From: Naegleria gruberi
Lineage: Eukaryota
NCBI GenBank assembly: GCA_000004985.1
Contig: GG738848.1
Direction: 5' to 3' (one strand)
Length of the DNA: 64,000 nucleotides
Of the stretch, positions 16,433-62,810 are shown piece by piece; position 1 is the first letter of the stretch, and the number at the start of each line of letters is the position of its first letter. The notes under the pieces are model-generated. The model was not told the origin of the DNA. It did no database searches and saw nothing but the letters and a program-made list of their open reading frames with translations. A program made the translations under genes and the position numbers.

Positions 16433-18514
16433 TTATTTTCTATTTGATAGGATTTTCTTTACAGTTTTGTTATCTGAACTCAAAACGAGATCAGGAGCAA
16501 TGTTCAGAACAATATCACCAGTAATTCCTTGTTTTACAATATAATTCTCTTGCGCTAATTTTTCAGTACTATCTGCAATTTCAGTAAAGTTACTTCTGAA
16601 ATCGTCATCAAGTATCTCTTCATATTTTCTTCTAAATTCCTCAGAGGTTATTTCTCCATTAAACTTTTCCTTCTCAGATGCAACACAGCAAAGTATGACA
16701 AGTACTTCAATTGTTGTCTGACCTAATCCTTTTAGTATATCCAATTTTCTGCTAAATTGTGTATTTACAAGTTTTATCAGCTTACTTGTATCCAAGGTAT
16801 GAGCAATTGGAATCAAGTGAGTTTCCACAAATGATTTAATTTGTCTCATATCATGTTTGTTCTTTAAGAGACCCATCATTTTCTGAATCATATCTGCTGA
16901 AATCTTGTGCTTGTATTCATGAACAAGGATTGAGGTAATATCATCCTGTTCATACTGATTAAATGCCAAAAAGTTAATACCTGGATTCTTTGGTGGATCG
17001 TTGGTGATGGCCAATATTATTACTTTAGCCACTCGAATTTGTTCCAGATATTTGTTATGCTTGCTATATGAAAATTCATCAAGTAAGATGAGTGCTGGTG
17101 TGTGCTTCTTATTGAAATACTCCAATAACTTGGTGATTCTCTCTTGCTTCTTTGTTGAATCTGTTGATCGAGTGTAAACTTTTTCATAGAGCCTATATAT
17201 CAAATCAGATGCTTTTTCTGAACCAGCTAAATTCAATTGATACTTTTCCAAACAAGATGCATCAAATACTGAAGTTGTTACCATTGTTTTTCCTTGACCA
17301 TTAGTTCCGTAAATAAAAAGCACATTCTTTTGGGGATTAAAATCTTCATAACAGTTTTGGATAAAGTTAATTATTGTATCACATTCCTGCTTTCTTGAGA
17401 ATACTTCAACGTTTTGATTAAAGATTTTTGGTGATGATTTTTGTTTCTTTAGAGAAGATTCAAAAGGATGTTTCTCTTGTTCTTCTTCTCTTTCTGTGAC
17501 TGGAAGCTTAGCAATTGTCTTTCTTCTTGCTTGTCTTTGTTTTTTTGGAACTATTTCAATCTCGTCTTCAGATAGTAATGGTTCTTCAGTTTTCACAACC
17601 AAATCTTGTGAATCCTCAACTGGTTCAATTTTGACTTTTTGTCTGCGTCCTTGCCTAGATTTAACAGGAACAGGTTCTAATACTTCTTCTTGTGGTTGTT
17701 GCTGTATCTCATTAACAATAGGCACACTAGTTGAGGGTGAAACAATTTCTTGTGAATCTTCGGCTACTGTTGGAGGTACTGTTTCGTCTTTCGTTTCTGG
17801 AGTGATGCTAATAGTAGGTCGGGCTTGCCTCTTCTTTGTTCTAGTTTTAACAGATGCATGAATTACAGGGGATTGAATGTTGTTGGTAGTAGTATTCGAA
17901 TTGGATTGTTGTGATGAACTAGTTTCTTGAATTGGAGATTGTCTAACTAGATGAGTTTGAGGAGGGGAAAGAGGTGAAATTGATGGAGGCATCATTGGAA
18001 TTGAATGTTGACTATTGCTGTATGGACTTTGTGATAATGAGCTTTCGACTGGCATATTTCTCATTGGTGTTGAAAAGCTTCTAGAGGTTGTTGGACTGAA
18101 AAAGTATTCTCTTGTTTGATTAACAGATGTAATATATTGATCTCGATCCATAAGATCGATTTCTCTTTGTTCTGGTGGTAGTAATAAGAGTTTCTTCCAC
18201 AGCAGTCTATATTGAGTATTAGAGGTAATTTTAATGTCCTTGTTTGTTTTAATATCGTGAAAAACAATCACAAATTTACTCCTATCAACATTAGGATCAT
18301 CTATCACTTCCGACATTAAAAATTGTCTTGTTGATTCAATATCGGAATTTTCTTGTAATAGAGTTGTAGTTACACCATAATTTAAACACGATAGAGTGAC
18401 TTCCATTTCATCGGTAACACTATCATCAATCATGGAATGATCGGACAGAAGTGATGAGGAGAAAGAAGAGGTTTGTCTCCTTGTTGATGTATCTGTGATG
18501 TGTTGTTGACTCAT
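16433..18514 (-). CDS. Cdc6/Cdc18-like AAA+ ATPase (ORC1/Cdc6 family), 693 aa, single exon.
   Basis: Real ATG at 18512-18514 (MSQQHITDTSTRRQ). N-terminal region rich in S/T-P sites (SPYSNSQHSIPMMPPSISPLSPPQTHLVRQSPIQ, TPMR, SPST), like the Cdc6 CDK-phosphorylated N-terminus. Walker A FIYGTNGQGKTMV. Walker B LILLDEFSY. Sensor-1-like VIILAITNDPPKNPG (compare Cdc6/ORC1 LIGIANTMDLPER). The family assignment is inferred from motifs only. Confidence 0.45.
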   Translation of the reverse strand: MSQQHITDTSTRRQTSSFSSSLLSDHSMIDDSVTDEMEVTLSCLNYGVTTTLLQENSDIESTRQFLMSEVIDDPNVDRSKFVIVFHDIKTNKDIKITSNTQYRLLWKKLLLLPPEQREIDLMDRDQYITSVNQTREYFFSPTTSRSFSTPMRNMPVESSLSQSPYSNSQHSIPMMPPSISPLSPPQTHLVRQSPIQETSSSQQSNSNTTTNNIQSPVIHASVKTRTKKRQARPTISITPETKDETVPPTVAEDSQEIVSPSTSVPIVNEIQQQPQEEVLEPVPVKSRQGRRQKVKIEPVEDSQDLVVKTEEPLLSEDEIEIVPKKQRQARRKTIAKLPVTEREEEQEKHPFESSLKKQKSSPKIFNQNVEVFSRKQECDTIINFIQNCYEDFNPQKNVLFIYGTNGQGKTMVTTSVFDASCLEKYQLNLAGSEKASDLIYRLYEKVYTRSTDSTKKQERITKLLEYFNKKHTPALILLDEFSYSKHNKYLEQIRVAKVIILAITNDPPKNPGINFLAFNQYEQDDITSILVHEYKHKISADMIQKMMGLLKNKHDMRQIKSFVETHLIPIAHTLDTSKLIKLVNTQFSRKLDILKGLGQTTIEVLVILCCVASEKEKFNGEITSEEFRRKYEEILDDDFRSNFTEIADSTEKLAQENYIVKQGITGDIVLNIAPDLVLSSDNKTVKKILSNRK

Positions 18515-18553: not shown

Positions 18554-18570
18554 AAAAGGCGCCAAAAAAC
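18554..18570. promoter_or_regulatory. E2F-like element AAAAAGGCGCCAAAAAA (TTTTTTGGCGCC on the minus strand) in the divergent promoter between the Cdc6-like gene and the PH gene.
   Basis: GGCGCC core at 18558-18563 flanked by A/T runs, 45 bp upstream of the Cdc6-like ATG. It matches the E2F consensus TTTSSCGC. Confidence 0.35.
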
Positions 18571-41169: not shown

Positions 41170-43407
41170 TTAAACATCTCTATCTTTTGGTTCTTTAAAT
41201 GGTATTCCAATAAAATTAAAAATATCATTTTCAGTTTTACAATTAATTTTAGTACCATCATGAATTCTATTTGATTTTGAATCTCTAATAGTATTTATAC
41301 ATAATGATTTATCACTTAGAGAATAACCCTTCTTTCTACATAATAAACGTAATGATCTATTAAAATGATCTGAACCTGTAAAATATAATAATGCAAATGC
41401 AAAATGTTCTCTCCTATAAACTTTAATATCAATTCTTCTGTGAATTCCAATTTGTGGTAAATAATAAACTCCCATAAATGTATCATTTTCATCTTGATTT
41501 AAATGTATTTTACATGAAATTGATAATGTATCAGTTATTATTTTCATTTCTTCAAGTTTTGTTACTATTTTTTGTAATAATCCATCAATTATTATTTTTT
41601 CATTATTATTATTATGATTATTATTAATATGATTATTATTATTATTATTATTATTATTAATATTATTAATAGTTATCAATTCATTTGATTCAATTGATGA
41701 TGATTCATTTGATGATAATTCAATTGATGAAAATTGATTATCATTTTCATCTTGTTTTAGAGTAATTAAAATGTCAACATCACCTGAATCTTGTTTACCT
41801 CTTCTATATGAACCACATACTTGACATACTATAAATGGATTAATTTCATAACAAACTTGATTAATTAAATTATAAATTTGTTCAACTTCCATTCTTGGAA
41901 TTCTTTGTTGAAATTCATAAAAATATTTTAATCCAATTAATTGTTGTGAATTTAATTTAGATTTATCAATTTCATTTATATTTCTATATCCATATGAATA
42001 TAATTGGAAAGCTGTTTTTTGTCCAACTCCCCAAATTTTTGTAAATTCTTGAATTATTTGATTTTGATATGAAGATGAAATTCCTTCAACTCTTTTCATT
42101 TTACCAAATTTTAAATATTCTTTAATTTTATCTTTAACTTTATCTCCAATTCCTTTTATGGTATTTACTTGTTCTATTTTAGTAATTTTAAAATTTAATT
42201 TTTTTATTATTGTTATTGATTTTTTATAGGCTAATGATCTAAATATATCATTATTATCAGAATAATGTTTATATAATTTATTAAATAATTCAATTAATTC
42301 TTCATTATTATTAGAATTATTTCCATTTATATCATTTATATTATTAGAAGAAGAATTATTATTATTAGAATTATTATTAGAATTATTATTATTGGATGAA
42401 CTTCCACTAACACATACAAATGAATTTAAAAATCTTTCTTGTCTTTCTTTTTTAATTTCCATAATTGATTTATTATTACTATTTATATTATTATTATTAT
42501 TAGAAATAATAGAATCATTTAAATTATTATTATTAGAAATATTATTAACATCTTGTTGTTGTGGTTGTTGTGAAGAATTTAATTCTTGTTGAGAATTATT
42601 TAATAAATTAATTTCATAATTACTAAATTTAGTAATTAATTTATCATATTTAATACAATCTATTATATATTTACATTTTAATAATTTACAATTTAAATAA
42701 TTTGGATAAATTTCTTTAATTTTTTCAATATTTTCATTTCCACAAATAATAAAATCAAATAAAATATTAAAATTATTAAATTTATAAATTTCACAAATTC
42801 CACCTTTTTTTCTAATATTATTTAAATGAATATTTGCTTGTTGATTTGACATGTTTTTACCACAAATTAATAATATTTTAATTCCTTCAAATATTTTATT
42901 TTGTTGTGAATTTTTATTTTCTATAAATGTATTATTATTACTTTCCATATATGTATTATTATTAATATTTATATAACTATTATCTATATATGTATTATTA
43001 TTTATATCATCATTAGATGTATCCATTAAATTATTACTATTATTAGAAATATTATTAACATCCATATTTGTAATATTATTTTCTATTAAATTTTCAGGTA
43101 ATGAAAATAATTGATTATTTTTAAATCTAATATCATATTTATTTTGAATTAAATTATTTAATTTTGTATAATTAAATTTTAATTCCTTTTCTATTGGATT
43201 TAATTTTGAATATAAATTATATAAATGATTAACTACTTGTTCCGAATTATTATTATTAGAATTATTATTAGAATTATTAGAATTATTAGAAATGTTAGAA
43301 TTATTTAATTGATGATTGTTATATTCCAAATCTTCCTTTTCTAAATCGATTAGATAATTTTCAATATGAGAGAAGAAGGCTTGATAATTTTCTGATGTCA
43401 TTTTCAT
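41170..43407 (-). CDS. Family X DNA polymerase with an N-terminal BRCT-like region (Pol lambda / Pol4-like), 745 aa.
   Basis: Real ATG at 43405-43407 (MKMTSENYQAFF). BRCT-like segment (IKILLICGKNMSNQQANIHLNNIRKKGGICEIYKF). Helix-hairpin-helix motif GIGDKVKDKIKEYL. PolX catalytic motif GSYRRGKQDSGDVDILIT, then ...DIKVYRREHFAFALLYFTGSDHFNRSLR. Several poly-N insertions. Confidence 0.65.
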   Translation of the reverse strand: MKMTSENYQAFFSHIENYLIDLEKEDLEYNNHQLNNSNISNNSNNSNNNSNNNNSEQVVNHLYNLYSKLNPIEKELKFNYTKLNNLIQNKYDIRFKNNQLFSLPENLIENNITNMDVNNISNNSNNLMDTSNDDINNNTYIDNSYININNNTYMESNNNTFIENKNSQQNKIFEGIKILLICGKNMSNQQANIHLNNIRKKGGICEIYKFNNFNILFDFIICGNENIEKIKEIYPNYLNCKLLKCKYIIDCIKYDKLITKFSNYEINLLNNSQQELNSSQQPQQQDVNNISNNNNLNDSIISNNNNNINSNNKSIMEIKKERQERFLNSFVCVSGSSSNNNNSNNNSNNNNSSSNNINDINGNNSNNNEELIELFNKLYKHYSDNNDIFRSLAYKKSITIIKKLNFKITKIEQVNTIKGIGDKVKDKIKEYLKFGKMKRVEGISSSYQNQIIQEFTKIWGVGQKTAFQLYSYGYRNINEIDKSKLNSQQLIGLKYFYEFQQRIPRMEVEQIYNLINQVCYEINPFIVCQVCGSYRRGKQDSGDVDILITLKQDENDNQFSSIELSSNESSSIESNELITINNINNNNNNNNNHINNNHNNNNEKIIIDGLLQKIVTKLEEMKIITDTLSISCKIHLNQDENDTFMGVYYLPQIGIHRRIDIKVYRREHFAFALLYFTGSDHFNRSLRLLCRKKGYSLSDKSLCINTIRDSKSNRIHDGTKINCKTENDIFNFIGIPFKEPKDRDV

Positions 43408-43575
43408 TCATTTTTTTTAGGCGGGAAATTCATCTCTCCCATTATTCTTTTTGATATCATCATAACAATAACTGATGATGATTCCGAGTAACGAATATTT
43501 ATTCATGTCCATCACACAAATATTTGTGAAGATGAAATAATAAAAATAAATGATGACATTTAAAAATCAAAAAAA

Positions 43576-45895: not shown

Positions 45896-47392
45896 ATGTC
45901 ATCATCTAGTACAATGACTCCATCACCTCATCATCATCATTCTAGTAGTGGTGGTGGTATTGGTGGTGATAGTATTGATGATCATCATACTAATAATAAT
46001 AATAATAATAACAAATCAAATATTAATATTTTCTTCCAACAATTAACAAGTAAACAATCACTATTTTATATATCTATAATAGCAATATTATTTGAAATAT
46101 TATTTAATATAATAATAATTAAAAAAGTATCATATACAGAAATTGATTGGATTGCATATATGGAAGAAGTTAAAGGTTTTTTAAATGGAGATTGGGATTA
46201 TTCACATTTACATGGTCAAACAGGACCACTTGTATATCCTGCTTTATTTGTTTATATTTATTCTATTTTAAATATAATTACTTTAGATGGAAGTGTAATA
46301 ATTGGACAATATATTTTTGTATTAATTTATATTTTTATTTTTATTATAGTAATTACATTATATTTAAATTATAGTAAATTTAATAATAATAAATATATTT
46401 GGATAATAATAATGTTAATGTTAAGTAAAAGAATACATTCTATATTTGTATTAAGAATGTTTAATGATTGTATTGCAATGATGTTTCTATATTTAGCAAT
46501 ATTATGTTTTTGTAAAGATTATTATAAATTTGGATTATTTTTCTATAGTTGTGCATTAGGAATTAAAATGAATATTTTATTATTTTTACCAGCAGTTGGA
46601 ATTTTAATTGTTCAAAGATTTGGATTTACATTTAAATCAATTTTAAAATTAATTATTTTTATATTTGGATTACAAATATTATTTGCAATTCCATTTATTT
46701 ATGGAAATATGTTTGAATATTTTAATTATGCATTTGATTTTGGAAGAGAATTTACATTTAAATGGACTGTTAATTTTAGATTTTTAAATGAAGAATTTTT
46801 TAAATCAAAATTATTAGCAAAATTATTATTATTATTACATGTTTTATTTTTATTAATTTTTATTTTTACAAAATGGTGTAATGGTAAATTATTTAAAAAT
46901 CCATTTCATTTATTATTTAAATATAAAAATAACAAACCATTAGATACACAACATGTCATTTATTTAATGTTTACAAGTAATTTTATTGGTTTTATTTTTG
47001 CTAGAAGTTTACATTATCAATTCTATGTTTGGTATTTTCATACCATTCCATTCATGTTAATGTTCATTCCTTATTTTAAATTTAATTTTATTAGATTGGT
47101 TATTTTATTAGCAATTGAATATGTTTGGAATGTTTATCCATCCACTTCATTCTCATCTGCTCTTTTACATTTGTGTCATTTCATTATTTTATTAGGTTTA
47201 TTATTCACTCCATCACCTGCTTCTAAAATGAATGAAAATGGAACTATTATTAATCAAAATAATGATAATAATAATATTAATGATATGAACAATACAACAA
47301 CACCAACACCAACAACTATTAATCAAAGTAATATTGTTGATAATGTTAGTGTTTGTAACAATGATGATGATACAAAGAAGAAGAATAATTAA
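45896..47392 (+). CDS. ALG3-family dolichyl-P-Man:Man5GlcNAc2-PP-dolichol alpha-1,3-mannosyltransferase.
   Basis: Real ATG at 45896. His/Gly/Asn-rich N-terminal leader. Multi-pass membrane protein with ALG3-like conserved blocks (WIAYMEEVKGFLNGDWDYSHLHGQTGPLVYPA, NDCIAMMFLYLAILCF, FIYGNMFEYFNYAFDFGREFTFKWTVNF). Confidence 0.65.
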   Translation: MSSSSTMTPSPHHHHSSSGGGIGGDSIDDHHTNNNNNNNKSNINIFFQQLTSKQSLFYISIIAILFEILFNIIIIKKVSYTEIDWIAYMEEVKGFLNGDWDYSHLHGQTGPLVYPALFVYIYSILNIITLDGSVIIGQYIFVLIYIFIFIIVITLYLNYSKFNNNKYIWIIIMLMLSKRIHSIFVLRMFNDCIAMMFLYLAILCFCKDYYKFGLFFYSCALGIKMNILLFLPAVGILIVQRFGFTFKSILKLIIFIFGLQILFAIPFIYGNMFEYFNYAFDFGREFTFKWTVNFRFLNEEFFKSKLLAKLLLLLHVLFLLIFIFTKWCNGKLFKNPFHLLFKYKNNKPLDTQHVIYLMFTSNFIGFIFARSLHYQFYVWYFHTIPFMLMFIPYFKFNFIRLVILLAIEYVWNVYPSTSFSSALLHLCHFIILLGLLFTPSPASKMNENGTIINQNNDNNNINDMNNTTTPTPTTINQSNIVDNVSVCNNDDDTKKKNN

Positions 47393-47447: not shown

Positions 47448-48257
47448 TTAACCACCTTTTAATGCACAAACAATTTGAAAAATACAATTATTTTCAATTC
47501 CAATAATTTCACATAATCTTAGCGTATTTACATTAGATTGAGTTGGTATTATTCTTCCTTTTAAAACAATTCTTTGTTTTGGAATTGGAATTCCGAGTTG
47601 TTCATTAATTATTTGTTGTAAATCAAATAATGTACTCGATTCTATATCAACTTGACTGAATGAAATGGTTTGACCACTTAATCCTTTCACTTGAAAATTA
47701 ATTATACTATTCTTTCTATTCAATTCTTGATTTATAACTGTTGCACGTAAATATTCTACATGTTGTAAATGTTTTCTATATATATAAGAATCATGAATAT
47801 TAGATGATGATGATGGTGATAATATTTGATCATCTTCCATTATTGAATTATCTTGATGCATATTATTATTATTACTGTGTTGATTAATAGATAGATCAAA
47901 GCCTATCGTTGATTGTATGTACAAGGAGGAGGAGGGTTGTTGGTGATGAGTTTGGTGATAGAAGGGAGTGTCATGATGATGATGATGTTGATGATGTGGT
48001 GATGGTTGAATGGTGGTAGGAGTATTAGTAGTGATGGTAGTGACATTATGAGAAGTGTTATTATTGAATGAAAAAAGGCTTTGTGAAGGAGGATCAAATC
48101 TCTTCTTTTTTAAACTTGATTCATAATAATTTAAATGTACATGATCCGAATCATAAAAGATAGTTTGGTGATGTGGTAGAAAAGCCTGTAGGGAAAAATC
48201 AGGCTCACACAAATGATCATCTTCATATGAATATTCTTCATAGGTACGTTTACTCAT
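47448..48257 (-). CDS. Protein with a C-terminal ubiquitin-like (beta-grasp) domain terminating exactly in Gly-Gly, preceded by a His/Gln/Asn-rich disordered N-terminal region. About 269 aa.
   Basis: The track ORF starts on an alternative codon. The first real ATG is at 48255-48257 (MSKRTYEEYSYEDDHLCEPDF). C-terminal about 80 aa: NFQVKGLSGQTISFSQVDIESSTLFDLQQIINEQLGIPIPKQRIVLKGRIIPTQSNVNTLRLCEIIGIENNCIFQIVCALKGG followed by a stop. This is ubiquitin-like spacing ending in a free diglycine. Confidence 0.45.
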   Translation of the reverse strand: MSKRTYEEYSYEDDHLCEPDFSLQAFLPHHQTIFYDSDHVHLNYYESSLKKKRFDPPSQSLFSFNNNTSHNVTTITTNTPTTIQPSPHHQHHHHHDTPFYHQTHHQQPSSSLYIQSTIGFDLSINQHSNNNNMHQDNSIMEDDQILSPSSSSNIHDSYIYRKHLQHVEYLRATVINQELNRKNSIINFQVKGLSGQTISFSQVDIESSTLFDLQQIINEQLGIPIPKQRIVLKGRIIPTQSNVNTLRLCEIIGIENNCIFQIVCALKGG

Positions 48258-48321
48258 TTTTTTTGATTTGTTTTCCAGCCTCACTTGGAATATTTTTGAA
48301 ACAAAATTTGTTACCTAAATT

Positions 48322-48333
48322 TTTGGCGCCAAA
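48322..48333. promoter_or_regulatory. Perfect palindromic E2F-type site TTTGGCGCCAAA.
   Basis: Seen directly in the sequence, 64 bp upstream of the ATG of the ubiquitin-like gene, at the edge of a GC-normal non-coding island. Confidence 0.35.
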
Positions 48334-48743
48334 CAAACTTTCTGGATTTTGTAATACTTTATGAATTTGAAAGAATAGTCTGCAAATAAGTAGATTGTTC
48401 CAGTTCCATTAAGGTATTTGGCTACACCCAATGAAAGGCACCACCAAAGCAACCATTTTCCAAACATCCAAAATCAAGAAATTGTAATATTTACAATGTG
48501 CAAAAATACTAATCAGGAATAATTTCACACATTGTAAATACAACATAGATACTATTATTAAATTAATTAATTGTAAAGACTTCATATTTCGAATTCAAGC
48601 TATTAGAAGGATAGTTAAGAAGAGTGGTCTGTTATTCCTTCGCTATTGGGTTACCGTATATTTATGCTTTGAGATAACCATCAAATCTTTTAATCTAACA
48701 AATACATCTCATTTAAATACAATACACAACTTTCACTGGTCAC

Positions 48744-48754
48744 TTTGCGGGAAA
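48744..48754. promoter_or_regulatory. E2F-like motif (minus strand TTTCCCGCAAA).
   Basis: The plus strand reads TTTGCGGGAAA. Its reverse complement matches TTTSSCGC. Lies inside the 48300-49880 non-coding island. Confidence 0.2.
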
Positions 48755-49882
48755 GTTAAATAGCTTTGCAACCTACGAAACGCAGCAAATTTTATGTTCT
48801 AATATCCATACACAACAACATATGGTAACGATGCTTCATTTGTTGTCAAACAACTGAAACACTTAGAATTTATGAATCACTAACTACCATACAGAAGTGT
48901 ATATGTAAATTGAGATAACTACTTTGCACCATACAATAACTGATCATCATCTGTGGTTGTTCATTGATTACCACCGTTTGAGCAACAATCATATTTCCCA
49001 ACGGATGAGCCCAACTAAGATCAAGGATAACAACTTAGGCTAACCAAAAATACTTATAATATTATGTCTATTACGTAATTATACATACTGTAGATCAACA
49101 AACATATCTGAAAGCCCTTTCAATTGCGGTAACTGTTCAGTACTCTTTTCGTTTCACATTTTACGGATGTTTGTCTCAAGAATGGTCAATACATTGTTTA
49201 TTTTTATTTTTTTTACGTATAGTGCTCAAAGCGATTTTAGTTTTTACAGCATATAATATTTGATTGTTTCAACAGCAGATTTTGTTTCTAATTTAAGTAA
49301 TAAACTAAGGTCTCTATTTCTATTATCCAATTTGGTAACCAGTTCATAAAGTGGTCATGTTTTGCACGTTTTACACACATTTAAAGCAAGTTCGTAGTAC
49401 TTCATCTTAATAAAAGAATTGATTTCATGAAAAGTATCCTCAATTTCACCAGTTCACAAAATAATCACTCAAGTCAAAAACCATTTCAACCAATTCAACA
49501 ACCTTCACCTAGTTTGAAGACAGCAACTGGATAAACACTCCAAGAAAACATTTAAAATACTCTTTTTATTAATTCTGCTGGAAGATATTATTCAAATTAA
49601 TCATTAATTATTTTGTATTCCGCAAAAACTGATATTACTACTGGTACTTGCAGCTTGCTATTTGTTTTTATGTTTCAAGAAGGTGAGTTGGAACAAAAGT
49701 TGGACTGTAAGAGAGACGACAAAGGATCTTCAATTGTATTGATTGAGGAATGCAACAACAAAGGTACTTCTCTTTTAGATCCGTTTCCATGGCTAAATAT
49801 GTTCATGACAGTAAAAAAGCGCCGTCACACATTTATGCAATTTGAACCTTTTATCATGCATTTGAGCAATAAAAAAAAGAAA

Positions 49883-52800
49883 ATGGCAGTACGTTAGAGA
49901 TTCTTTAAGATTTTTTAATAGTAAAATTTATCTCTCATATTTTCTCATTGTTTTTGATTGTTATTAATTGTTATTGTTGTTACTGATTGTTTGTTATTAA
50001 AAAGACTTTGAATCAATTCACTATTGCTCATAGTAATAATAGTAGTACTAATAGTAGTACAAATACTGAAAATGATCCAACAAAGAATTGGCAAAGTACA
50101 ATTTTATTCTATGTGAACGGAGAACGTCATGAAATTACAAAACCAAATCCAAACACAACACTTGCAAATTATCTTCGTAAAAAGTTACATTTAACCGGTA
50201 CAAAGGGTATGTTGTTTTAATGTCGTTAAATTATATATTTAAATATATTTTAAATATATTTTAATAATAATAATAATAATACTAAATATTAAACAGTTGC
50301 TTGTGGTGAAGGTGGATGCGGAGCATGTACAGTTGTATGTATTATTCTTTAACAATATTTAATAATAACAATTTAATAATAATATTTAATATTTAATAAT
50401 ATTTAATAATATTTAATAATAGCTTGTATCACATTATGATCATTTAACAAATTTTGTAGTGAATAGAAGTGTTAATGCATGTTTATTTCCATTAATTCAA
50501 ATAGATGGATGTGCTATTGTAACAGTTGAAGGTATTGGTAATAATCATTCAGAAGATGTATTACATTTAATTCAACAACGTTTTAGAGAATTTGGTGCAT
50601 CACAATGTGGTTTTTGTACTCCTGGTTTTGTTATGGCTTTATATTCTTTATTGAGAAATAATCCTCATCCATCTCTTGAGGAAATTTCAAGAGCATTTGA
50701 TGGTAATTTATGTAGATGTACTGGTTATAGATCGTATGTATTATTATATTATTGTTGTTGTTTAATAATAATTATAATAATTATAATAATATTGATTGTT
50801 GTTTAAATGATGACTATGAAATGCATTACCTTAAATATGATACTATTTATGTATGATGATATGATACTATTTATATATGTGATGATATGATACTATTAAA
50901 TATGTTTGGTGATGGTGATTGAATATGATTAGCATTTTTGAGGCAGCTGCTACATTTGCACGTGTTCATGAAGATTCTGAATATCATCCAGCAAAAAGTG
51001 TTTGTAGTATGGGTGATAATTGTTGTAAAAAGACAGGTGAATCTTCTAATGATTGTGGTGGTGGTAATAGTAATAATAATACTAGTAATAATAATGGTTG
51101 TGGTAAGAATGATTGTTGTAAAAAATCACCAACACATGAAAATGATCAACATTCAAGAAGTAATGTAATTGGTAAACATTTATATAATCTAGTTGGACAA
51201 AAACATCCATTATTTCCACATGAATTGAGAAGATATAATCCAAATGAAAGATCACTTTGTGTTGAATCACCTGTACAATCAGGATCAGATAGACATGAAA
51301 CTAAAACTATTTATTATAGACCTTCTAATTTAAATGAATTTTTATATTTAAGAAAGAAATATGAACATGAAAAACATTTACGTATCATTTGTGGTAATAC
51401 TGAACTTGGTATTGAAACTAAATTTAAAAAATTTGATCATTATAGATATTATATTGAAGCTGTTAGAATTCCTGAATTACTTGTTAAAAAAGTTAATTAT
51501 ATTGATATTAATAATACTATTAATAATAACAATGATACTATTAATAACAATGATGATACTATTAATAACAATGATAATGATAATAATAATAGAATTGCTA
51601 AAAGTATTGAAATTGGAGCATCATTAACATTAACAAATTTATATAATTATTTAAAAAGTTTAATAGATGAATTACCAGAATATCAAATTCAAGGTATTAA
51701 AGCAGTATGTGAACAAATTGAAAGATTTGCATCAAATTCAGTTAGAAATGCAGCATCATTAGGTGGTAATATTGTAACTGCATCTCCTATTTCTGATTTA
51801 AATCCATTATGGTTAGCAATGGATTGTTCTTTAAATATTATGAATTCAAATGGTAATATTAGAATTGTACCTTTTAATCAATTCTTTTTAGGTTATAGAA
51901 AAGTTAATTTATTAGATGATGAAATTGTTATTTCAATTAATATTCCTTTATTTAATCATTTTAATACATTATCTTATAATAATATTAATAATATTGATAA
52001 TATTAATAATAATAATACTATTACTAATAATAACAATTTAATTGAAATAGTACATTCATATAAACAATCTAAAAGAAGAGAAGATGATATTGCTATAGTA
52101 ACATCAGGTATGAGAATGATTATAGATAAAAGTAATGGTATTATTAGAGAATGTAAAATATCATTTGGTGGAATGTCATTTAAAACATTATTAGCAGATG
52201 AAACAAGTAAATATTTAATTGGAAAGGAATTGAATGAACAAGTATTTTTACAATCATTAGAATTATTAAAACAAGATGTACCATTAAAAGAGAATGCACC
52301 TGGTGGTATGATTGAATATAGATGTTCATTAACATTATCATTTTTATATAAATTTTATATAAGTGTTTTAAAAGAATCAAAATTGAGAGAATTAACAATT
52401 GATGAAGAATCAGTATTAGAATCACAATTTATTAAACCCTATCCAAGAGGTGAACAAGTATATAGACCATTAAAAGAACAAGGTACAAGTGTAGGTAAAC
52501 CTATACCACATAATTATAGTCATTTACAAGTAACAGGTGAAGCAACCTATGTACAAGATATACCACCTCAATCAAGAGAAGCCTATGCATATCCTGTTTT
52601 ATCAACTAAACCATTTGCTATTATTAAAAAAGTAGATTATAATAGAGCATTAACATTTGAAGGTGTTATTACATGGGTTGATTATAAAGATGTTAAAGGT
52701 TCAAATAGATGTGGTGCTGTTATACATGATGAAGAAGAATTATTTTTAACAAGTGAAACTACTAGTTGTGGTCAATTAATTGGTTTTATTATTGCTGATT

Positions 52801-55495
52801 CTCATTTAAAAGCAATGACTGCTGCTAAATCTGTACATGTTGAATATGAAGAATATCAAAATCCTATTTTATCTATTCAAGATGCTTTACAATTTAATGC
52901 TCCTTCTTTAATTGATAGAAGAATATTTAGAGGTGATGCTATTAATAGATTAAATGAAATTAAACAATTAATTAATAATGATAATTCAAATAATAATAAT
53001 AATAATAATAACAATGATAATAATGATAACAATGATAATACTACTAGTGATAATTCTAATTCTAATAGTAATGAAGAATATGAAATAATTGAAGGTGATT
53101 TAAATATTGGAGGACAAGAACATTTTTATTTTGAAACACAATCATGTTTAATATTACCAGGTAGATATGGAATGTCAGGAGATGAAGGAGAATATGTTGT
53201 ATTTTCATCTACACAATCACCTACACATACTCAATCTATTGTTGCAAGTGCATTAGGTATACCAGATCATAAAGTTATTTCAAAATTAAAAAGATTAGGT
53301 GGTGGTTTTGGTGGTAAAGAAAGTAGAAGTTGTATTTTAGCAGGTATGTTTTTAATTTTTTAATTTTATTTTTAATTTTAATTTAATTTTAATTAAATTA
53401 TTAAATTATATTTAATTATAATAATATATTATTATTATATTTATAATTTAATATAGGAGCTGTTGCAGTTGCAGCACAAAAGACTAATAGACCAGTTAGA
53501 TGTATATTAGATAGAGATGTAGATATGCAATCATCTGGTCAAAGACATCCATTTTATTCTAAATATAAAATAGTAATTAATAAGAAGACATTAAAATTTG
53601 AAACAGTACTTGTTGATACATATGCAAATGGAGGATATTCATTAGATTATTCTAAAGGAGTATTAGAAAGAGCATTATATAGTTTTGATAATGTTTATTA
53701 TTTTCCACATATTGATTTGAAAGGTAAAGCTTTAAAAACTAATTTACCTACAAATACTGCTTTTAGAGGTTTTGGTGGTCCACAAGGTTTAATGATTTGT
53801 GAACATATTATTGAACATGTTTCACATTATTTATCTGTTAAATATCCAAATTTAATTAATCAATTCATTTTAAATCATTTAAATCAATATAATATTTTAA
53901 AGAATGTTATTTTACCTTCTATTCATTTGAATGATAATATTAATGATACAACTATTAATAATATTAATGATACTATTAATAATACAAATAATACAAATAA
54001 TATTAATAATAATACTATTAATATAAATACAAATAATAATAATAATATACAATTAAGTCATTTAATTAGACAAGTTAACATGTATGAAAAAGAGAATGCT
54101 ATAACACCATATAAAATGCCAATTGGTGATGTTCATAGAATTATATTAATGTGGGATAGAATTATTGAAATTACAAAATATCAAGAAAGATTACAACAAG
54201 TGAATGAATTTAATAGTAAAAATAAGTATCAAAAGAGAGGATTATCTTTAATTCCAACTAAATTTGCAATTTCATTTGGAGTTTCATTTTTAAATCAAGC
54301 AAGTGCATTAATTAATATATATAGTCATGATGGTAGTGTATATGTATCACATGCAGGTACAGAAATGGGACAAGGTGTTTCAATTAAAGTTGCACAATGT
54401 GTTGCTTCTTCATTAGGTATTCCAATTGAATTAATTCATATTGGTGAAACTTCAACTGATAAAGTACCAAATACATCTGCTACTGCTGCTTCTGTTGGTT
54501 CTGATTTAAATGGTTTTGCTGCAAAGAATGCATGTGAAAAAATTAATCAACAATTATCATCTTTAAAACAATCTTTATTTCCACATTTATTTAAGAAGAA
54601 TTATTCAAATGAATCTAATACTCAATCTAATGATAATACTCAATCTAATCAATCAAATCAATCAAATGATAATACTCAATCTAATCAATCAAATAATATT
54701 CAAACAAATCAAACAAATGGTGAAAATAATAATAATATAACAACACCTCAATTAAGTATTGAAGAATGGAAGAAATTAGTTAAAGAAGCCTATATGAAAT
54801 GTATACCATTAACAGCTACAGGATATTATAACACACCTAATTTATATATGGATTGGGATAAAAGTGAAGGTACACCATTTTCATATTTTACATATGGAGT
54901 AGCATGTAGTGAAGTACAAATTGATACATTAACTGGTGATTGGACATGTTTAAAAACAGATATTGTAATGGATGTAGGTGATAGTTTAAATCCTACTATT
55001 GATATTGGTCAAATTGAAGGAGCATTTATACAAGGAATGGGATATTATACAATGGAAGAATTAATATTTGGAGATAAAGAACATCCATGGGTACAACCAG
55101 GTCATTTATTTACTAAAGGACCAGGTAATTATAAAATACCATCTGGTAATGATATTCCAAATGAATTTAATGTACATTTATTAAGAGATGAACAAAATAG
55201 ACAATTTCCATCATCTGTATTTTCATCTAAGGGTGTTGGTGAACCTCCTTTATTCTTGGCTTCATCTGTTTTATTTGCTATTAGAAATGCTATTGCTGAT
55301 TTTAGATCTAGAAATTGTAATAATCCTTCTTATTTCATTTTAGATTCACCATGTACATGTGAAAGAATTAGAATGTTATGTGAAGATGATTTTACAAGAC
55401 ATTTTTATAATAAGAATATTAATGATATGGAAAATAATGAAAATAATAATGAACATGTTGAAAATGTTGCATTTAGAGCAAAGGGTAGTTTTTAA
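49883..55495 (+). CDS. XDH: Xanthine dehydrogenase/oxidase. 6 exons (49883-49888, 50005-50206, 50297-50334, 50423-50733, 50933-53343 and 53457-55495). About 1668 aa.
   Basis: Exon 1 is ATGGCA with a GTACGT donor. Exon 2 reads TLNQF...STILFYVNGERHEITKPNPNTTLANYLRKKLHLTGTK. Exon 3 is a mini-exon encoding VACGEGGCGACTV (first 2Fe-2S cluster). Exon 4 reads LVSHYDHLTNFVVNRSVNACLFP...ASQCGFCTPGFVMALYSLLRNNPHPSLEEISRAFDGNLCRCTGYRS (second 2Fe-2S cluster). Exon 5 reads IFEAAATFAR..., the FAD domain, ...RLGGGFGGKESRSCILA (molybdopterin signature GGGFGGKE). Exon 6 reads GAVAVAAQKTNRPVRCILDRDVDMQSSGQRHPF...GVGEPPLFLASSVLFAIRNAI. Donors GTATGT and GTACGT. Many poly-N/S insertions in loops. Confidence 0.75.
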
Positions 55496-60244: not shown

Positions 60245-60256
60245 TTTGGCGCCAAT
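60245..60256. promoter_or_regulatory. Near-palindromic E2F-type site TTTGGCGCCAAT.
   Basis: Seen directly, about 200 bp upstream of the acetyl-CoA synthetase ATG, inside a GC-normal non-coding island. Confidence 0.25.
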
Positions 60257-60290
60257 TTTCTTTGGTTATTGATAACAAAAACAAATTTCT

Positions 60291-60440
60291 CTACACCAAC
60301 AATAATAACAATAACAACAACAATAACAAATAACAACAATTATCTACTCCTAATCATACAACAACAACAATATTCTACAATAACAACAATAACAACAATA
60401 ACAACAATAACAACAAATACAACAATAACAACAACAATAG
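60291..60440 (+). repeat. (AAC/AAT/ACA)n microsatellite-like tract in the 5' leader of the ACS gene.
   Basis: ACAATAATAACAATAACAACAACAATAACAAATAACAACAAT...AATAACAACAATAACAACAATAACAACAAATACAACAATAACAACAACAATAG lies immediately upstream of the ATG at 60459. Confidence 0.6.
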
Positions 60441-60458: not shown

Positions 60459-62810
60459 ATGGATAATCAAAGTTTTACACCACTTCCACATGTTCAACAA
60501 CGTGCTTGGATTCAATCCTATGAACAATATTTAGGAATGTATAGAGAAAGTGTTGAAAAGCCTTATGATTTTTGGTATAAGGTAGCCAATGAAAATTATC
60601 ATTGGAAGGAAAAGAATTTTAGTTTAGAAGAACCTAAAAGTATTCTAGATTATAATTTTGATTTGAGTAAAGGACCAATTCATATTGAATGGTTTAAGAA
60701 TAGTTTAACAAATATTTGTTATAATGCATTGGATAGACATGTAGAAAATGGAAATGGAGATCGTGTAGCCTTTTATTATGAAGGAAATGATATTAATGAT
60801 AATCATTCAACAATTACATATAAGGAATTATTGAAACAAGTTTGTAAATTTGGTAATGTATTAAGAAAATTAGGAGTTAAAAAAGGTGATCGTGTTGCAA
60901 TGTACATGCCAATGGTAATGGAATTAATTATAGCAGTATTAGCTTGTGCACGTATAGGTGCAATTCACTCTGTTGTATTTGGAGGATTTAGTGCTGAAGC
61001 CTTAGCAAGTCGTTTAATTGATTCACATTCTAAAATTATTGTTACATCTGATTATGGTATTCGTGGTGATAAATTAATTGCTTTAAAACAAGCAGTTGAT
61101 GAAGCAATTGATCATCATTGTCAAGATACTGGTTTTACTTGTGAAAAGGTAATTGTTGTTAATAGAATGAATTCAAAAATTGTATCAATGGATACAAAAC
61201 CAAGTCATTCAATTTCATCTCCACAAATTCATTGGTATGAAAAACGTGATGTTTTTTATAATGATTTAATGAATGATGAAACAATAAGTGAAGAATGTCA
61301 AGTTGAATGGGTTAAAGGTGAAGATGGTTTATTCATGTTATATACAAGTGGTAGTACAGGTAAACCAAAAGGTTTATTACATACTACTGCTGGTTATATG
61401 ATTTATACTTCAACTACATTTAAATATGTTTTTGATTATCATGAAAATGATGTTTATTGGTGTGGTGCTGATATTGGTTGGATTACTGGTCACTCTTATG
61501 TTATTTATGGTCCTTTAATTTGTGGTGCAACAAGTGTTATATTTGAAGGTATTCCAACTTATCCAACTCCATCTAGATATTGGCAAATTATTGACAAGTA
61601 TAAGGTTAATCAATTTTATACTGCTCCAACTTTAATTCGTACTTTGATGAAAATTGGTGATGAACATGTTAAAAATGGTTCAACACGTGATTCACTTCGT
61701 ATTTTGGGTTCAGTTGGTGAACCAATTAATCCAGAAGCATGGTTATGGTATCATAATGTTATTGGTAATGGTAAATGTGCTATAGTTGATACTTTTTGGC
61801 AAACTGAATCAGGTGGTCATTTAATTACTCCAATTCCAGGTTGTATTACAACTAAACCAGGTTCTGCTACTTTCCCATTCTTTGGTGTTCAACCTGCTGT
61901 TTTACCACCAACTATAGAACCTCAAACACCTGCTGTTATTAATTCCAATGTTACTTCTGTTTTTAATTCATCTGATGCTGCTGTTGTTGTTAACAATGGA
62001 ACTACTACTACTAGTAAGGCAAGTGAAGAATTGGAAGGTGATTGTGAAGGTTATTTGGCAATTAAATTCCCATGGCCTGGTATTGCTAGAACAATCTTTG
62101 GTGATCATGATCGTTATGAAAAGACATACTTTGGTATTGTTAATGGTTACTATATGACTGGTGATGGTTGTAGAAGAGATTCAGATGGTTATATTTGGTT
62201 GACTGGACGTGTTGATGATGTTTTGAATGTTAGTGGACATCGTTTAGGTACTGCTGAATTGGAATCTGCATTTGTTGCTCACTCTTCTGTTGCTGAAGCT
62301 GCTGTAGTTCCATGTCCTCATGATATTAAGGGTCACGGTATTTATTGTTATGTTGTTTTGAAGGATCATGTTGATATTTCTGAACAAAAGAAACGTGATG
62401 AATTATCTCATGCTTTGAAACAATGGATTAGACATGAAATTGGTCCAGTTGCTACTCCTGATTTTATTCATTTTGCTTTTAAGANNNNNNNNNNNNNNNN
62501 NNNNNNNNNNNNNNNNNNNNNNNNNNNNNNNNNNNNNNNNNNNNNNNNNNNNNNNNNNNNNNNNNNNNNNNNNNNNNNNNNNNNNNNNNNNNNNNNNNNN
62601 NNNNNNNNNNNNNNNNNNNNNNNNNNNNNNNNNNNNNNNNNNNNNNNNNNNNNNNNNNNNNNNNNNNNNNNNNNNNNNNNNNNNNNNNNNNNNNNNNNNN
62701 NNNNNTTTGAGAAAGATTGCTGAAGGTAGTGAATCATCTTTGGGTGATGTTCTACTTTGGCTGATCCATCTGTTGTTGACGATTTGATTGCTACTCGTGT
62801 TGTTAAATAA
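60459..62810 (+). CDS. ACS: Acetyl-coenzyme A synthetase (AMP-forming). Interrupted by an assembly gap and carrying an apparent 1-nt frameshift near the 3' end.
   Basis: Real ATG (MDNQSFTPLPHVQQRAWIQSYEQYLGMYRESVEKPYDFWYKVA). AMP-binding signature LYTSGSTGKPKGLLHTTAGYM. ...WQTESGGHLITPIPG... After the N run: LRKIAEGSESSLGDV. The conserved C-terminus STLADPSVVDDLIATRVVK* is then read in the +1 frame. Confidence 0.75.
62485..62705. other. Assembly gap (221 N) inside the ACS coding region.
   Basis: Run of n characters. Confidence 0.95.

Follow-up and report, generated by a model that had tools for sequence, protein, structure and literature searches.

A Naegleria ubiquitin-family protein with a conserved C-terminal Gly-Gly: a candidate lineage-specific modifier

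A 64,000-nucleotide stretch of the Naegleria gruberi genome (contig GG738848.1 of assembly GCA_000004985.1; hereafter the window) carries on its minus strand, at positions 47448..48257, a complete single-exon gene, NAEGRDRAFT_62715, whose product combines a long N-terminal extension with a C-terminal ubiquitin-like (UBL) domain and ends in a free Gly-Gly (GG). As read from the sequence and the listing of open reading frames (ORFs), the gene comprises 269 codons and a TAA stop, with the ATG at 48257, the end of the last codon at 47451 and the stop at 47448-47450. The 269-residue product terminates in IENNCIFQIVCALKGG (IFQIVCALKGG), after which the stop follows; the preliminary description of this locus was exact both in placing GG immediately before the stop and in the C-terminal peptide that it quoted. 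Its assignment of the DNA to a dictyostelid was mistaken, as the protein is 100% identical to XP_002682123, the product of NAEGRDRAFT_62715 from N. gruberi, which is annotated merely as “predicted protein”. In the literature searched, neither this gene nor its N. fowleri orthologue is mentioned under any identifier, no expression data were found, and NAEGRDRAFT_62715 does not appear in the supplements of the Naegleria mitotic-synchrony study.

The family analyzed here consists of seven sequences, from N. gruberi, N. fowleri, N. lovaniensis (as a corrected ORF) and Willaertia magna, together with the sequences P0005, P0002 and P0143. The N. fowleri orthologue, FDP41_009299, has 256 residues, ends in ALKGG and bears the UniProt label “Ubiquitin-like domain-containing protein”. 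The annotated N. lovaniensis orthologue, C9374_014540 (P0004, 209 residues), is without the UBL domain and the GG, which proved to be an annotation error caused by a spurious intron; the uninterrupted ORF (L005:6001-6762, PYSW02000008.1) encodes 253 residues and ends in VCALKGG. The environmental fragment P0005 likewise ends in ALKGG, and the protein of Willaertia magna, KAL9648030.1 (P0009, 343 residues), in GLKGG. An environmental Naegleria-like species, represented by two independent assemblies (P0002 and P0153), has the C-terminus ALKGG-SGSMPSPQFL, and P0143, a distant 166-residue protein from a Sequence Read Archive assembly, has LHLVLALCGG-GSQFL. An exhaustive HMMER profile search of 1.84 billion representative proteins gave 481 matches at E <=0.001, the best 150 of which were considered; almost all of these 150 were polyubiquitins or proteins with several UBLs, which scored by way of many stretches, and the Willaertia protein and P0143 were the only true full-profile single-domain relatives among them. 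No further family members were obtained by a word-indexed profile search. As far as sampled, this ubiquitin-family protein appears to be confined to vahlkampfiid heteroloboseans.

Several observations bear on the limits of the gene. An in-frame GTG is located at 48284, 27 bases upstream of the ATG at 48257, and the latter is taken as the true start because the full-length Naegleria and Willaertia orthologues all begin with MSKR, compared with MKRKF in P0143, the most distant member. At the other end, the stop of the convergent ALG3 gene lies at 47392, 55 bp from the stop of NAEGRDRAFT_62715, and the same tight convergent layout is found in N. fowleri, N. lovaniensis and Willaertia magna. The possibility of a further exon downstream, which would leave the GG internal, was considered and rejected, with 45-78 bp left before ALG3 across the species compared. 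Because convergent ALG3 leaves so little room, it is very unlikely that the terminal GG is the artefact of a missed exon. Comparison of the N. fowleri and N. lovaniensis orthologues gives a ratio of nonsynonymous to synonymous substitution rates (dN/dS) of 0.18 overall, 0.17 in the N-terminal part and 0.15 in the UBL domain together with the helix that precedes it. NAEGRDRAFT_62715 is a real gene that has been under purifying selection over its whole length.

The profile, the predicted structure and a fold search agree in supporting the assignment of the C-terminal 85 residues (185-269; 47451..47705, minus strand) to the ubiquitin-family beta-grasp, in line with the ubiquitin-like fold that had been proposed for about the last 80 residues. 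The family profile aligns to residues 2-76 of mono-ubiquitin (E 7e-11), with the terminal GG placed on G75-G76, and Arabidopsis RUB1 scores equal to ubiquitin against it. All seven members match PF00240 (best E 2.3e-20), the N. gruberi protein scoring 20.8 bits on its own, below the gathering score of 25.4. In an AlphaFold2 model of the last 130 residues, the elements follow the canonical beta-beta-alpha-beta-beta-(3-10)-beta order of the grasp and the KGG end is unstructured; the mean predicted local distance difference test score (pLDDT) is 76, with 83-90 in the core and below 50 in the last 3 residues, and the predicted template modeling score (pTM) is 0.56. Identity to ubiquitin is 29-35% in the Naegleria and Willaertia members and 43% in P0143, and identity to NEDD8 is 31-39% for the family, with P0143 reaching 39-43% to ubiquitin or NEDD8. 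The Naegleria and Willaertia domains carry insertions in the beta1-beta2 hairpin and in the 50s loop. In ubiquitin numbering, a hydrophobic residue at 8, V44 and V/I70 are kept, and Q41, R42, G47 and L73 are invariant, so that, as judged from the alignment, the family retains the residues by which ubiquitin and NEDD8 contact the activating enzyme (E1), the conjugating enzyme (E2) and partner proteins.

The C-terminal L-K-G-G (residues 266-269; 47451..47462, minus strand), with the stop directly after it, is homologous to L73-R74-G75-G76 of ubiquitin. Retention of the GG in orthologues, which the preliminary description had singled out as informative, extends to the whole family: L266, G268 and G269 (ubiquitin L73, G75 and G76) are invariant in all seven members, and the GG falls in one alignment column in each of them, though the most distant members are just 37-41% identical over the helix and UBL domain. 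Position 72 is Ala in Naegleria and P0143 but Gly in Willaertia, and position 74, a Lys elsewhere, is Cys in P0143. The stop follows GG directly in five of the seven (N. gruberi, N. fowleri, the corrected ORF of N. lovaniensis, P0005 and Willaertia magna). An L73-x-G-G that is invariant within a tail predicted to be flexible, together with a GG-stop in these five, is what would be expected of a modifier that enters the active site of an E1. Type II UBL domains, which are not conjugated, generally do not keep a terminal GG, and the pattern in this family appears unlike what such domains usually show.

The remaining two members have residues beyond GG, 10 in P0002 (SGSMPSPQFL) and 5 in P0143 (GSQFL). 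Sequencing error was rejected for the P0002 tail, which is identical in the second independent assembly. The precursors of ubiquitin, NEDD8 and SUMO normally bear cleavable tails, and for this reason such short extensions fit a modifier rather than refute one; the preliminary description, which had named residues beyond GG in orthologues as a refutation, was mis-specified in this respect, since the tails of P0002 and P0143 are of the kind expected of precursor-type modifiers. By sequence identity, the tailed P0002 is nearer to Naegleria than the tail-less Willaertia protein is, and the tailed P0143 is the most distant member; this distribution implies that the tail was lost independently two or more times, each time back to an exact GG-stop, which fits a dispensable pro-peptide. 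Both tails (L001:1726-1758, the same gene in L008, and L007:1324-1338) end in Gln-Phe-Leu, though they come from the most distant pair of the family.

The preliminary description of the N-terminus as 190 His/Gln/Asn-rich residues needs correction: the low-complexity part comprises residues 1-153 (47799..48257, minus strand), it is Ser/His/Thr/Asn/Gln-rich (S 15%, H 12% for the N-terminal part), and conserved motifs and a conserved helix at residues 154-182 accompany it. Composition and pLDDT both point to disorder, with pLDDT below 50 for residues 1-168 in a full-length AlphaFold2 model, which is poor (pLDDT 46) and was used for the disorder call alone. Invariant columns mark short conserved motifs within residues 1-153, namely MSKR(S/T)(F/Y)..Y at residues 1-9, ES.(L/F)KKK(R/K)F, and MEDD at residues 140-143. 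The second of these is kept in four Naegleria-type sequences and has the counterparts KKMKF in Willaertia and KKRKF in P0143; its basic core in N. gruberi, KKKRF (residues 50-54; 48096..48110, minus strand), is a putative nuclear localization signal, a role that its sequence makes likely. The best-conserved part outside the UBL domain is the stretch of residues 154-182 (47712..47798, minus strand), with the pattern Y.YR(K/R)HLQH(V/I/L)EYL(R/K)A..INQ..N, in which H163, L164, H166, Y169, L170, Q177 and N180 are invariant in all seven members. This stretch is predicted as one long helix (model residues 15-43, pLDDT 71-82), part of it being drawn as a strand in the weaker full-length model. Searches with the helix and N-terminus found no sequence or fold match in the PDB outside the beta-grasp. 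A Pfam match to NuA4 (E 0.08) was weak and was treated as spurious, and the reading of RKHLQHV (R161-x-x-L164-x-x-V167) as a destruction box for the anaphase-promoting complex/cyclosome was dropped, the Arg being lost in P0143 and the stretch lying in the predicted helix.

A search started from P0143 returned only generic UBL proteins. Among them is P0154 (223 residues; L009:54-725, soil metagenome 3300012469), an unrelated-looking protist protein of similar layout, in which a basic motif and a low-complexity stretch rich in Asn precede a C-terminal ubiquitin-like domain; the ORF is complete and runs to HLVLGLSG and a stop, with a single Gly, and the HL.H..YL helix is missing. Gly-ending UBLs with an N-terminal extension may be commoner in protists than has been appreciated.

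Upstream of the ATG lies a perfect palindrome, TTTGGCGCCAAA, at 48322-48333 (-76 to -65 relative to the ATG), which is made up of two overlapping E2F-consensus sites. It is separated from the ATG by 64 bases, as had been claimed. The exact 12-mer is unique in the window, and with up to one mismatch there are 2 matches, the second at 60245, against 0.02 expected. The E2F character that had been ascribed to the palindrome is borne out by the consensus TTTSSCGC, which occurs 6 times in the window (GC content, 28%) against 0.44 expected, a count that none of 100 shuffles reached. All 6 copies are upstream of gene starts. Two of them, at 48322 and 48326, overlap within the palindrome, and a further match upstream of the UBL gene, TTTCCCGC (48747..48754, minus strand), lies about 490 bp from its ATG. 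The others are at 43421-43428, 14-21 bp before the ATG of a family-X (lambda/beta-type) DNA polymerase gene (41170-43407, minus strand); at 18559-18566, 45-52 bp before the ATG of a gene for a 693-residue AAA_22 ATPase (16433-18514, minus strand), whose identity as ORC1/Cdc6 could not be established; and at 60245-60256, about 210 bp before the ATG of an acetyl-CoA synthetase gene (60459-62723, plus strand). The E2F-consensus sites at other genes of the window read TTTGGCGC or TTTCCCGC, and the site at 60245, TTTGGCGCCAAT, is one base short of the TTTGGCGCCAAA palindrome.

The element also recurs upstream of orthologues. Three of the five species with usable promoters have the 9-mer TTTGGCGCC at 63-95 bp before the ATG, against a chance expectation of 3e-5 to 6e-4 per 150 bp. 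It lies at -63 in both assemblies of the environmental species, where no other TTTSSCGC match occurs within 10.4 kb, and in Willaertia it is located at -95, in a locus with a GC content of 22%; at the L007 locus, which encodes P0143, an E2F-type motif is absent. For the E2F-type motif at -76 in N. gruberi, -63 in the environmental species and -95 in Willaertia, 1e-3 to 1e-2 matches per 150 bp would be expected in each case. From its recurrence upstream of orthologues, the TTTGGCGCC element very probably has a function in some family members at least. The likeness to E2F/DP sites is close, as the exact consensus, the palindromic doublet and the promoter-proximal position recall the overlapping inverted sites of animal DHFR-type promoters; the Naegleria element differs in being a predicted site that is absent from N. 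lovaniensis and degenerate in N. fowleri. E2F/DP genes are probably present in Naegleria, and on the strength of the consensus E2F/DP may bind upstream of the UBL gene and its expression may be timed to G1/S.

As to the neighborhood, the order RICTOR, UBL gene and convergent ALG3 is common to N. fowleri, N. lovaniensis and Willaertia; RICTOR is again directly upstream of the UBL gene in the environmental Naegleria-like species, where the downstream neighbor is not ALG3. No tblastn match to RICTOR was found anywhere in the N. gruberi window, and because RICTOR adjoins the UBL gene in these four other species, synteny is broken here in N. gruberi. The interval at 48334-49950, about 1.6 kb with a GC content of 28-35% and no ORF of at least 100 residues, is long for such a gene-dense window and separates the UBL gene from a divergent xanthine-dehydrogenase-type gene; tblastn and Rfam searches of this interval revealed no RICTOR remnant and no non-coding RNA. 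In an apparent intron of the xanthine-dehydrogenase-type gene (exons at about 49987-55495, plus strand), tandem repeats of the ATTATTAAAT type occupy 50240-50440, and a simple-repeat leader resembling (AAC/AAT)n is found at 60290-60440, immediately before the ATG of the acetyl-CoA synthetase gene. The middle of ALG3 (coding sequence, 45896-47392, plus strand; Pfam ALG3, E 5e-120), at 46050-47100, has just 15-20% GC, far below the neighboring genes, which reflects a membrane protein very rich in Ile, Phe, Leu, Asn and Lys. Within a few kb of the UBL gene, N. gruberi and the environmental species (L008:8614-10272) each have a family-X DNA polymerase gene, an observation of linkage only.

We favor reading this protein as a lineage-specific (heterolobosean) ubiquitin-family modifier that is probably competent for conjugation, a tentative interpretation to which we give nearly, but not quite, an even chance, and in which conjugation itself is a step that we infer. 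Under such a scheme, an E1 would adenylate and then thioesterify the exposed Gly-Gly, and the enzyme would be a NEDD8-type or dedicated E1 rather than the ubiquitin E1. The latter needs Arg72 and is argued against because position 72 is Ala or Gly in this family. The modifier would then be transferred to an E2 and joined by an isopeptide bond to lysines of target proteins, so that the entire 269-residue protein, helix and disordered region included, would serve there as a docking platform held by a covalent bond. Where the GG is followed by a tail ending in QFL, as in two lineages, its exposure by a C-terminal hydrolase would have to come first. Transcription would be driven by the partly conserved TTTGGCGCC element of E2F/DP type, which would link expression to G1/S. 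For the full proposal, that a whole modifier of 27-30 kDa is attached through its native Gly-Gly to nuclear targets in a G1/S-linked manner by way of the NEDD8 E1 or a dedicated E1, our confidence is somewhat lower again. Nuclear localization, use of E1 and E2, conjugation, E2F binding and cell-cycle timing are all predictions from sequence. If the proposal is right, conjugates of this modifier would lie hidden within Naegleria ‘ubiquitin-remnant’ proteomics, as trypsin cutting after Lys267 would leave a di-Gly remnant identical to that of ubiquitin.

Several points weigh against a conjugated modifier. The AlphaFold2 model of the C-terminal 130 residues (pLDDT 76, pTM 0.56) was built from an alignment of 6 sequences. 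The variation at positions 72 (A/G) and 74 (K/C) makes the tail, on the sequences compared, less rigidly conserved than in ubiquitin and NEDD8, and the common QFL ending of the two tails could signal a function of the tail rather than its removal. The promoter element is reduced in N. fowleri to the one-mismatch ATTGGCGC at about -50, which by itself lacks significance, and an E2F-type motif is absent upstream in N. lovaniensis, where the spacer after RICTOR is 37 bp. Finally, an extension of about 185 residues that bears conserved docking motifs and a helix would, by analogy with known proteins, be less usual in a classical modifier than in a UBL-domain adaptor. A non-conjugated (type II) adaptor of this kind is the main alternative and a realistic possibility, though one that we would expect to be wrong more often than right. 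Its beta-grasp would bind non-covalently to a partner such as a proteasome receptor, an E2 or ligase (E3), or a protein with a ubiquitin-interacting motif or ubiquitin-associated domain, the helix and the N-terminal short motifs would bind other factors, and the GG would never be activated, being an inherited relic or a binding epitope. The length and conservation of the extension with its motifs and helix suit such an adaptor, as do the variable tail positions 72 and 74, the hint from the shared QFL ending of some function at the extreme C-terminus other than removal, and the fact that no dedicated enzymes are known. An adaptor accounts less readily for a GG and L73 that are invariant over deep divergence, with GG-stop in five of seven members, when type II UBLs are generally without a terminal GG; for the apparent loss of tails at least two times back to exactly GG; and for a tail that is predicted to be flexible and unpacked.

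The other explanations that we considered fare much worse. It is very improbable that the protein is simply the Naegleria NEDD8/Rub1 orthologue, furnished with an N-terminal extension and conjugated to cullins. The tail Ala72-Leu73-Lys74-Gly-Gly does resemble the ALRGG of NEDD8 (the tails vary, being A-L-K-G-G, G-L-K-G-G in Willaertia and A-L-C-G-G in P0143), RUB1 matches the family profile as well as ubiquitin does, and P0143 ends its domain in LHLVLALCGG; however, an identity of 31-39% to NEDD8 contrasts with the roughly 60% between NEDD8 and ubiquitin, and 269 residues with insertions in Naegleria and Willaertia contrast with 76-81 residues without indels. Moreover, the family occurs in few heteroloboseans whereas NEDD8 is pan-eukaryotic, Willaertia has Gly72, and the presence of the deneddylase CSN5 in Naegleria (PMC7531848) suggests an ordinary NEDD8 pathway there. 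Canonical ubiquitin and NEDD8 systems thus probably exist beside the UBL gene in Naegleria (PMC9741609; PMC7531848). We give almost no credence to the view that the gene is a mistaken prediction, or a ubiquitin pseudogene in decay that is joined to low-complexity sequence, with an accidental GG-stop: the low-complexity N-terminus, the sub-threshold Pfam score of the N. gruberi protein and the broken annotation in N. lovaniensis might invite that view, and it is refuted by intact ORFs in every species, dN/dS values of 0.15-0.18, conserved synteny and start context, and the shared N-terminal MSKR. It is just as hard to credit a URM1/MoaD-type sulfur carrier or an ATG12-type modifier. A free C-terminal GG on a beta-grasp would suit either, and ATG12 also has a disordered N-terminal extension, but a Pfam scan to E 10 gave no Urm1, ThiS/MoaD or APG12 match, only ubiquitin and the spurious NuA4, and the homology is specifically to ubiquitin and NEDD8 across the full domain. 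Membership is therefore, on the sequence comparisons, in the broad ubiquitin family only, the narrower assignments to NEDD8, URM1 and ATG12 having failed.

Comparison of the candidate modifier with known systems shows both likenesses and differences. With NEDD8/Rub1 it shares the beta-grasp, the flexible tail, Leu73 with Ala at 72 in most members and a basic residue at 74 ahead of the GG, a hydrophobic patch of the L8/I44/V70 type and, in some species, a short C-terminal tail after GG; it differs in the low identity given above, in the 185-residue extension with its conserved helix, in the loop insertions, in its restriction to few heteroloboseans, and in Gly72 of Willaertia and Cys74 of P0143. 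Unlike ubiquitin, the family has Arg72 replaced and K48 mostly as Arg, and the gene is neither a poly- nor a ribosomal fusion. FAT10 and ISG15 are likewise modifiers much larger than ubiquitin that conjugate through their C-terminal domain, and FAT10 has its GG free upon translation and requires no processing. Their N-terminal part, however, is a second beta-grasp, compared with the disordered region and helix here; there is no specific sequence relationship, and both are vertebrate-specific and cytokine-induced. ATG12 resembles the Naegleria protein in having a disordered, poorly conserved N-terminal extension before a C-terminal beta-grasp. The reactive Gly of ATG12 is C-terminal from translation onward and the whole protein is conjugated, but ATG12 has only one Gly at its end and falls in another sequence family (APG12), to which no match was found. 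The type II proteins Dsk2/ubiquilin, UBL4A/Get5 and BAG1 also hold a UBL within a larger multi-module protein, and the Naegleria protein gave weak sequence matches to UBLs of these types; their UBLs are usually N-terminal or internal and without a conserved terminal GG, and none has the HL.H..YL helix. By analogy, the tail and surface seem most like those of NEDD8 and ubiquitin, and the large size and ready-to-conjugate translation like those of FAT10 and ATG12. The divergence from ubiquitin is set off further by Naegleria's own ubiquitin, which is near the human sequence, with about three differing positions (PMC9741609), while the Naegleria and Willaertia members of this family are 29-35% identical to ubiquitin.

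The conserved free GG, the helix, the short motifs, the phyletic restriction and the promoter element all appear to be undescribed, and the protein is a credible candidate for a lineage-specific tag, judged by its sequence, rather than a demonstrated modifier. If it is a plain UBL-domain adaptor, it would be an ordinary uncharacterized lineage-specific gene. The partly conserved and enriched TTTGGCGCC element provides direct sequence evidence for E2F-type promoter logic in a discoban (excavate) eukaryote, and the LKGG tail means that di-Gly remnant proteomics in these organisms may not be assignable to ubiquitin alone. To our knowledge, new eukaryotic ubiquitin-like modifiers are rarely found, and almost all of those already known are ancient and shared across eukaryotes. 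Should the conjugation proposal be true, new conjugatable tags, or tag-adaptor hybrids, could still arise from ubiquitin or NEDD8 in single protist lineages, and here such a tag would be translated ready to conjugate, with a long regulatory extension and a tie to an E2F-type promoter. It would then define a Naegleria-specific pathway, absent from humans, in the genus of the lethal pathogen N. fowleri, whose own orthologue also ends in ALKGG.

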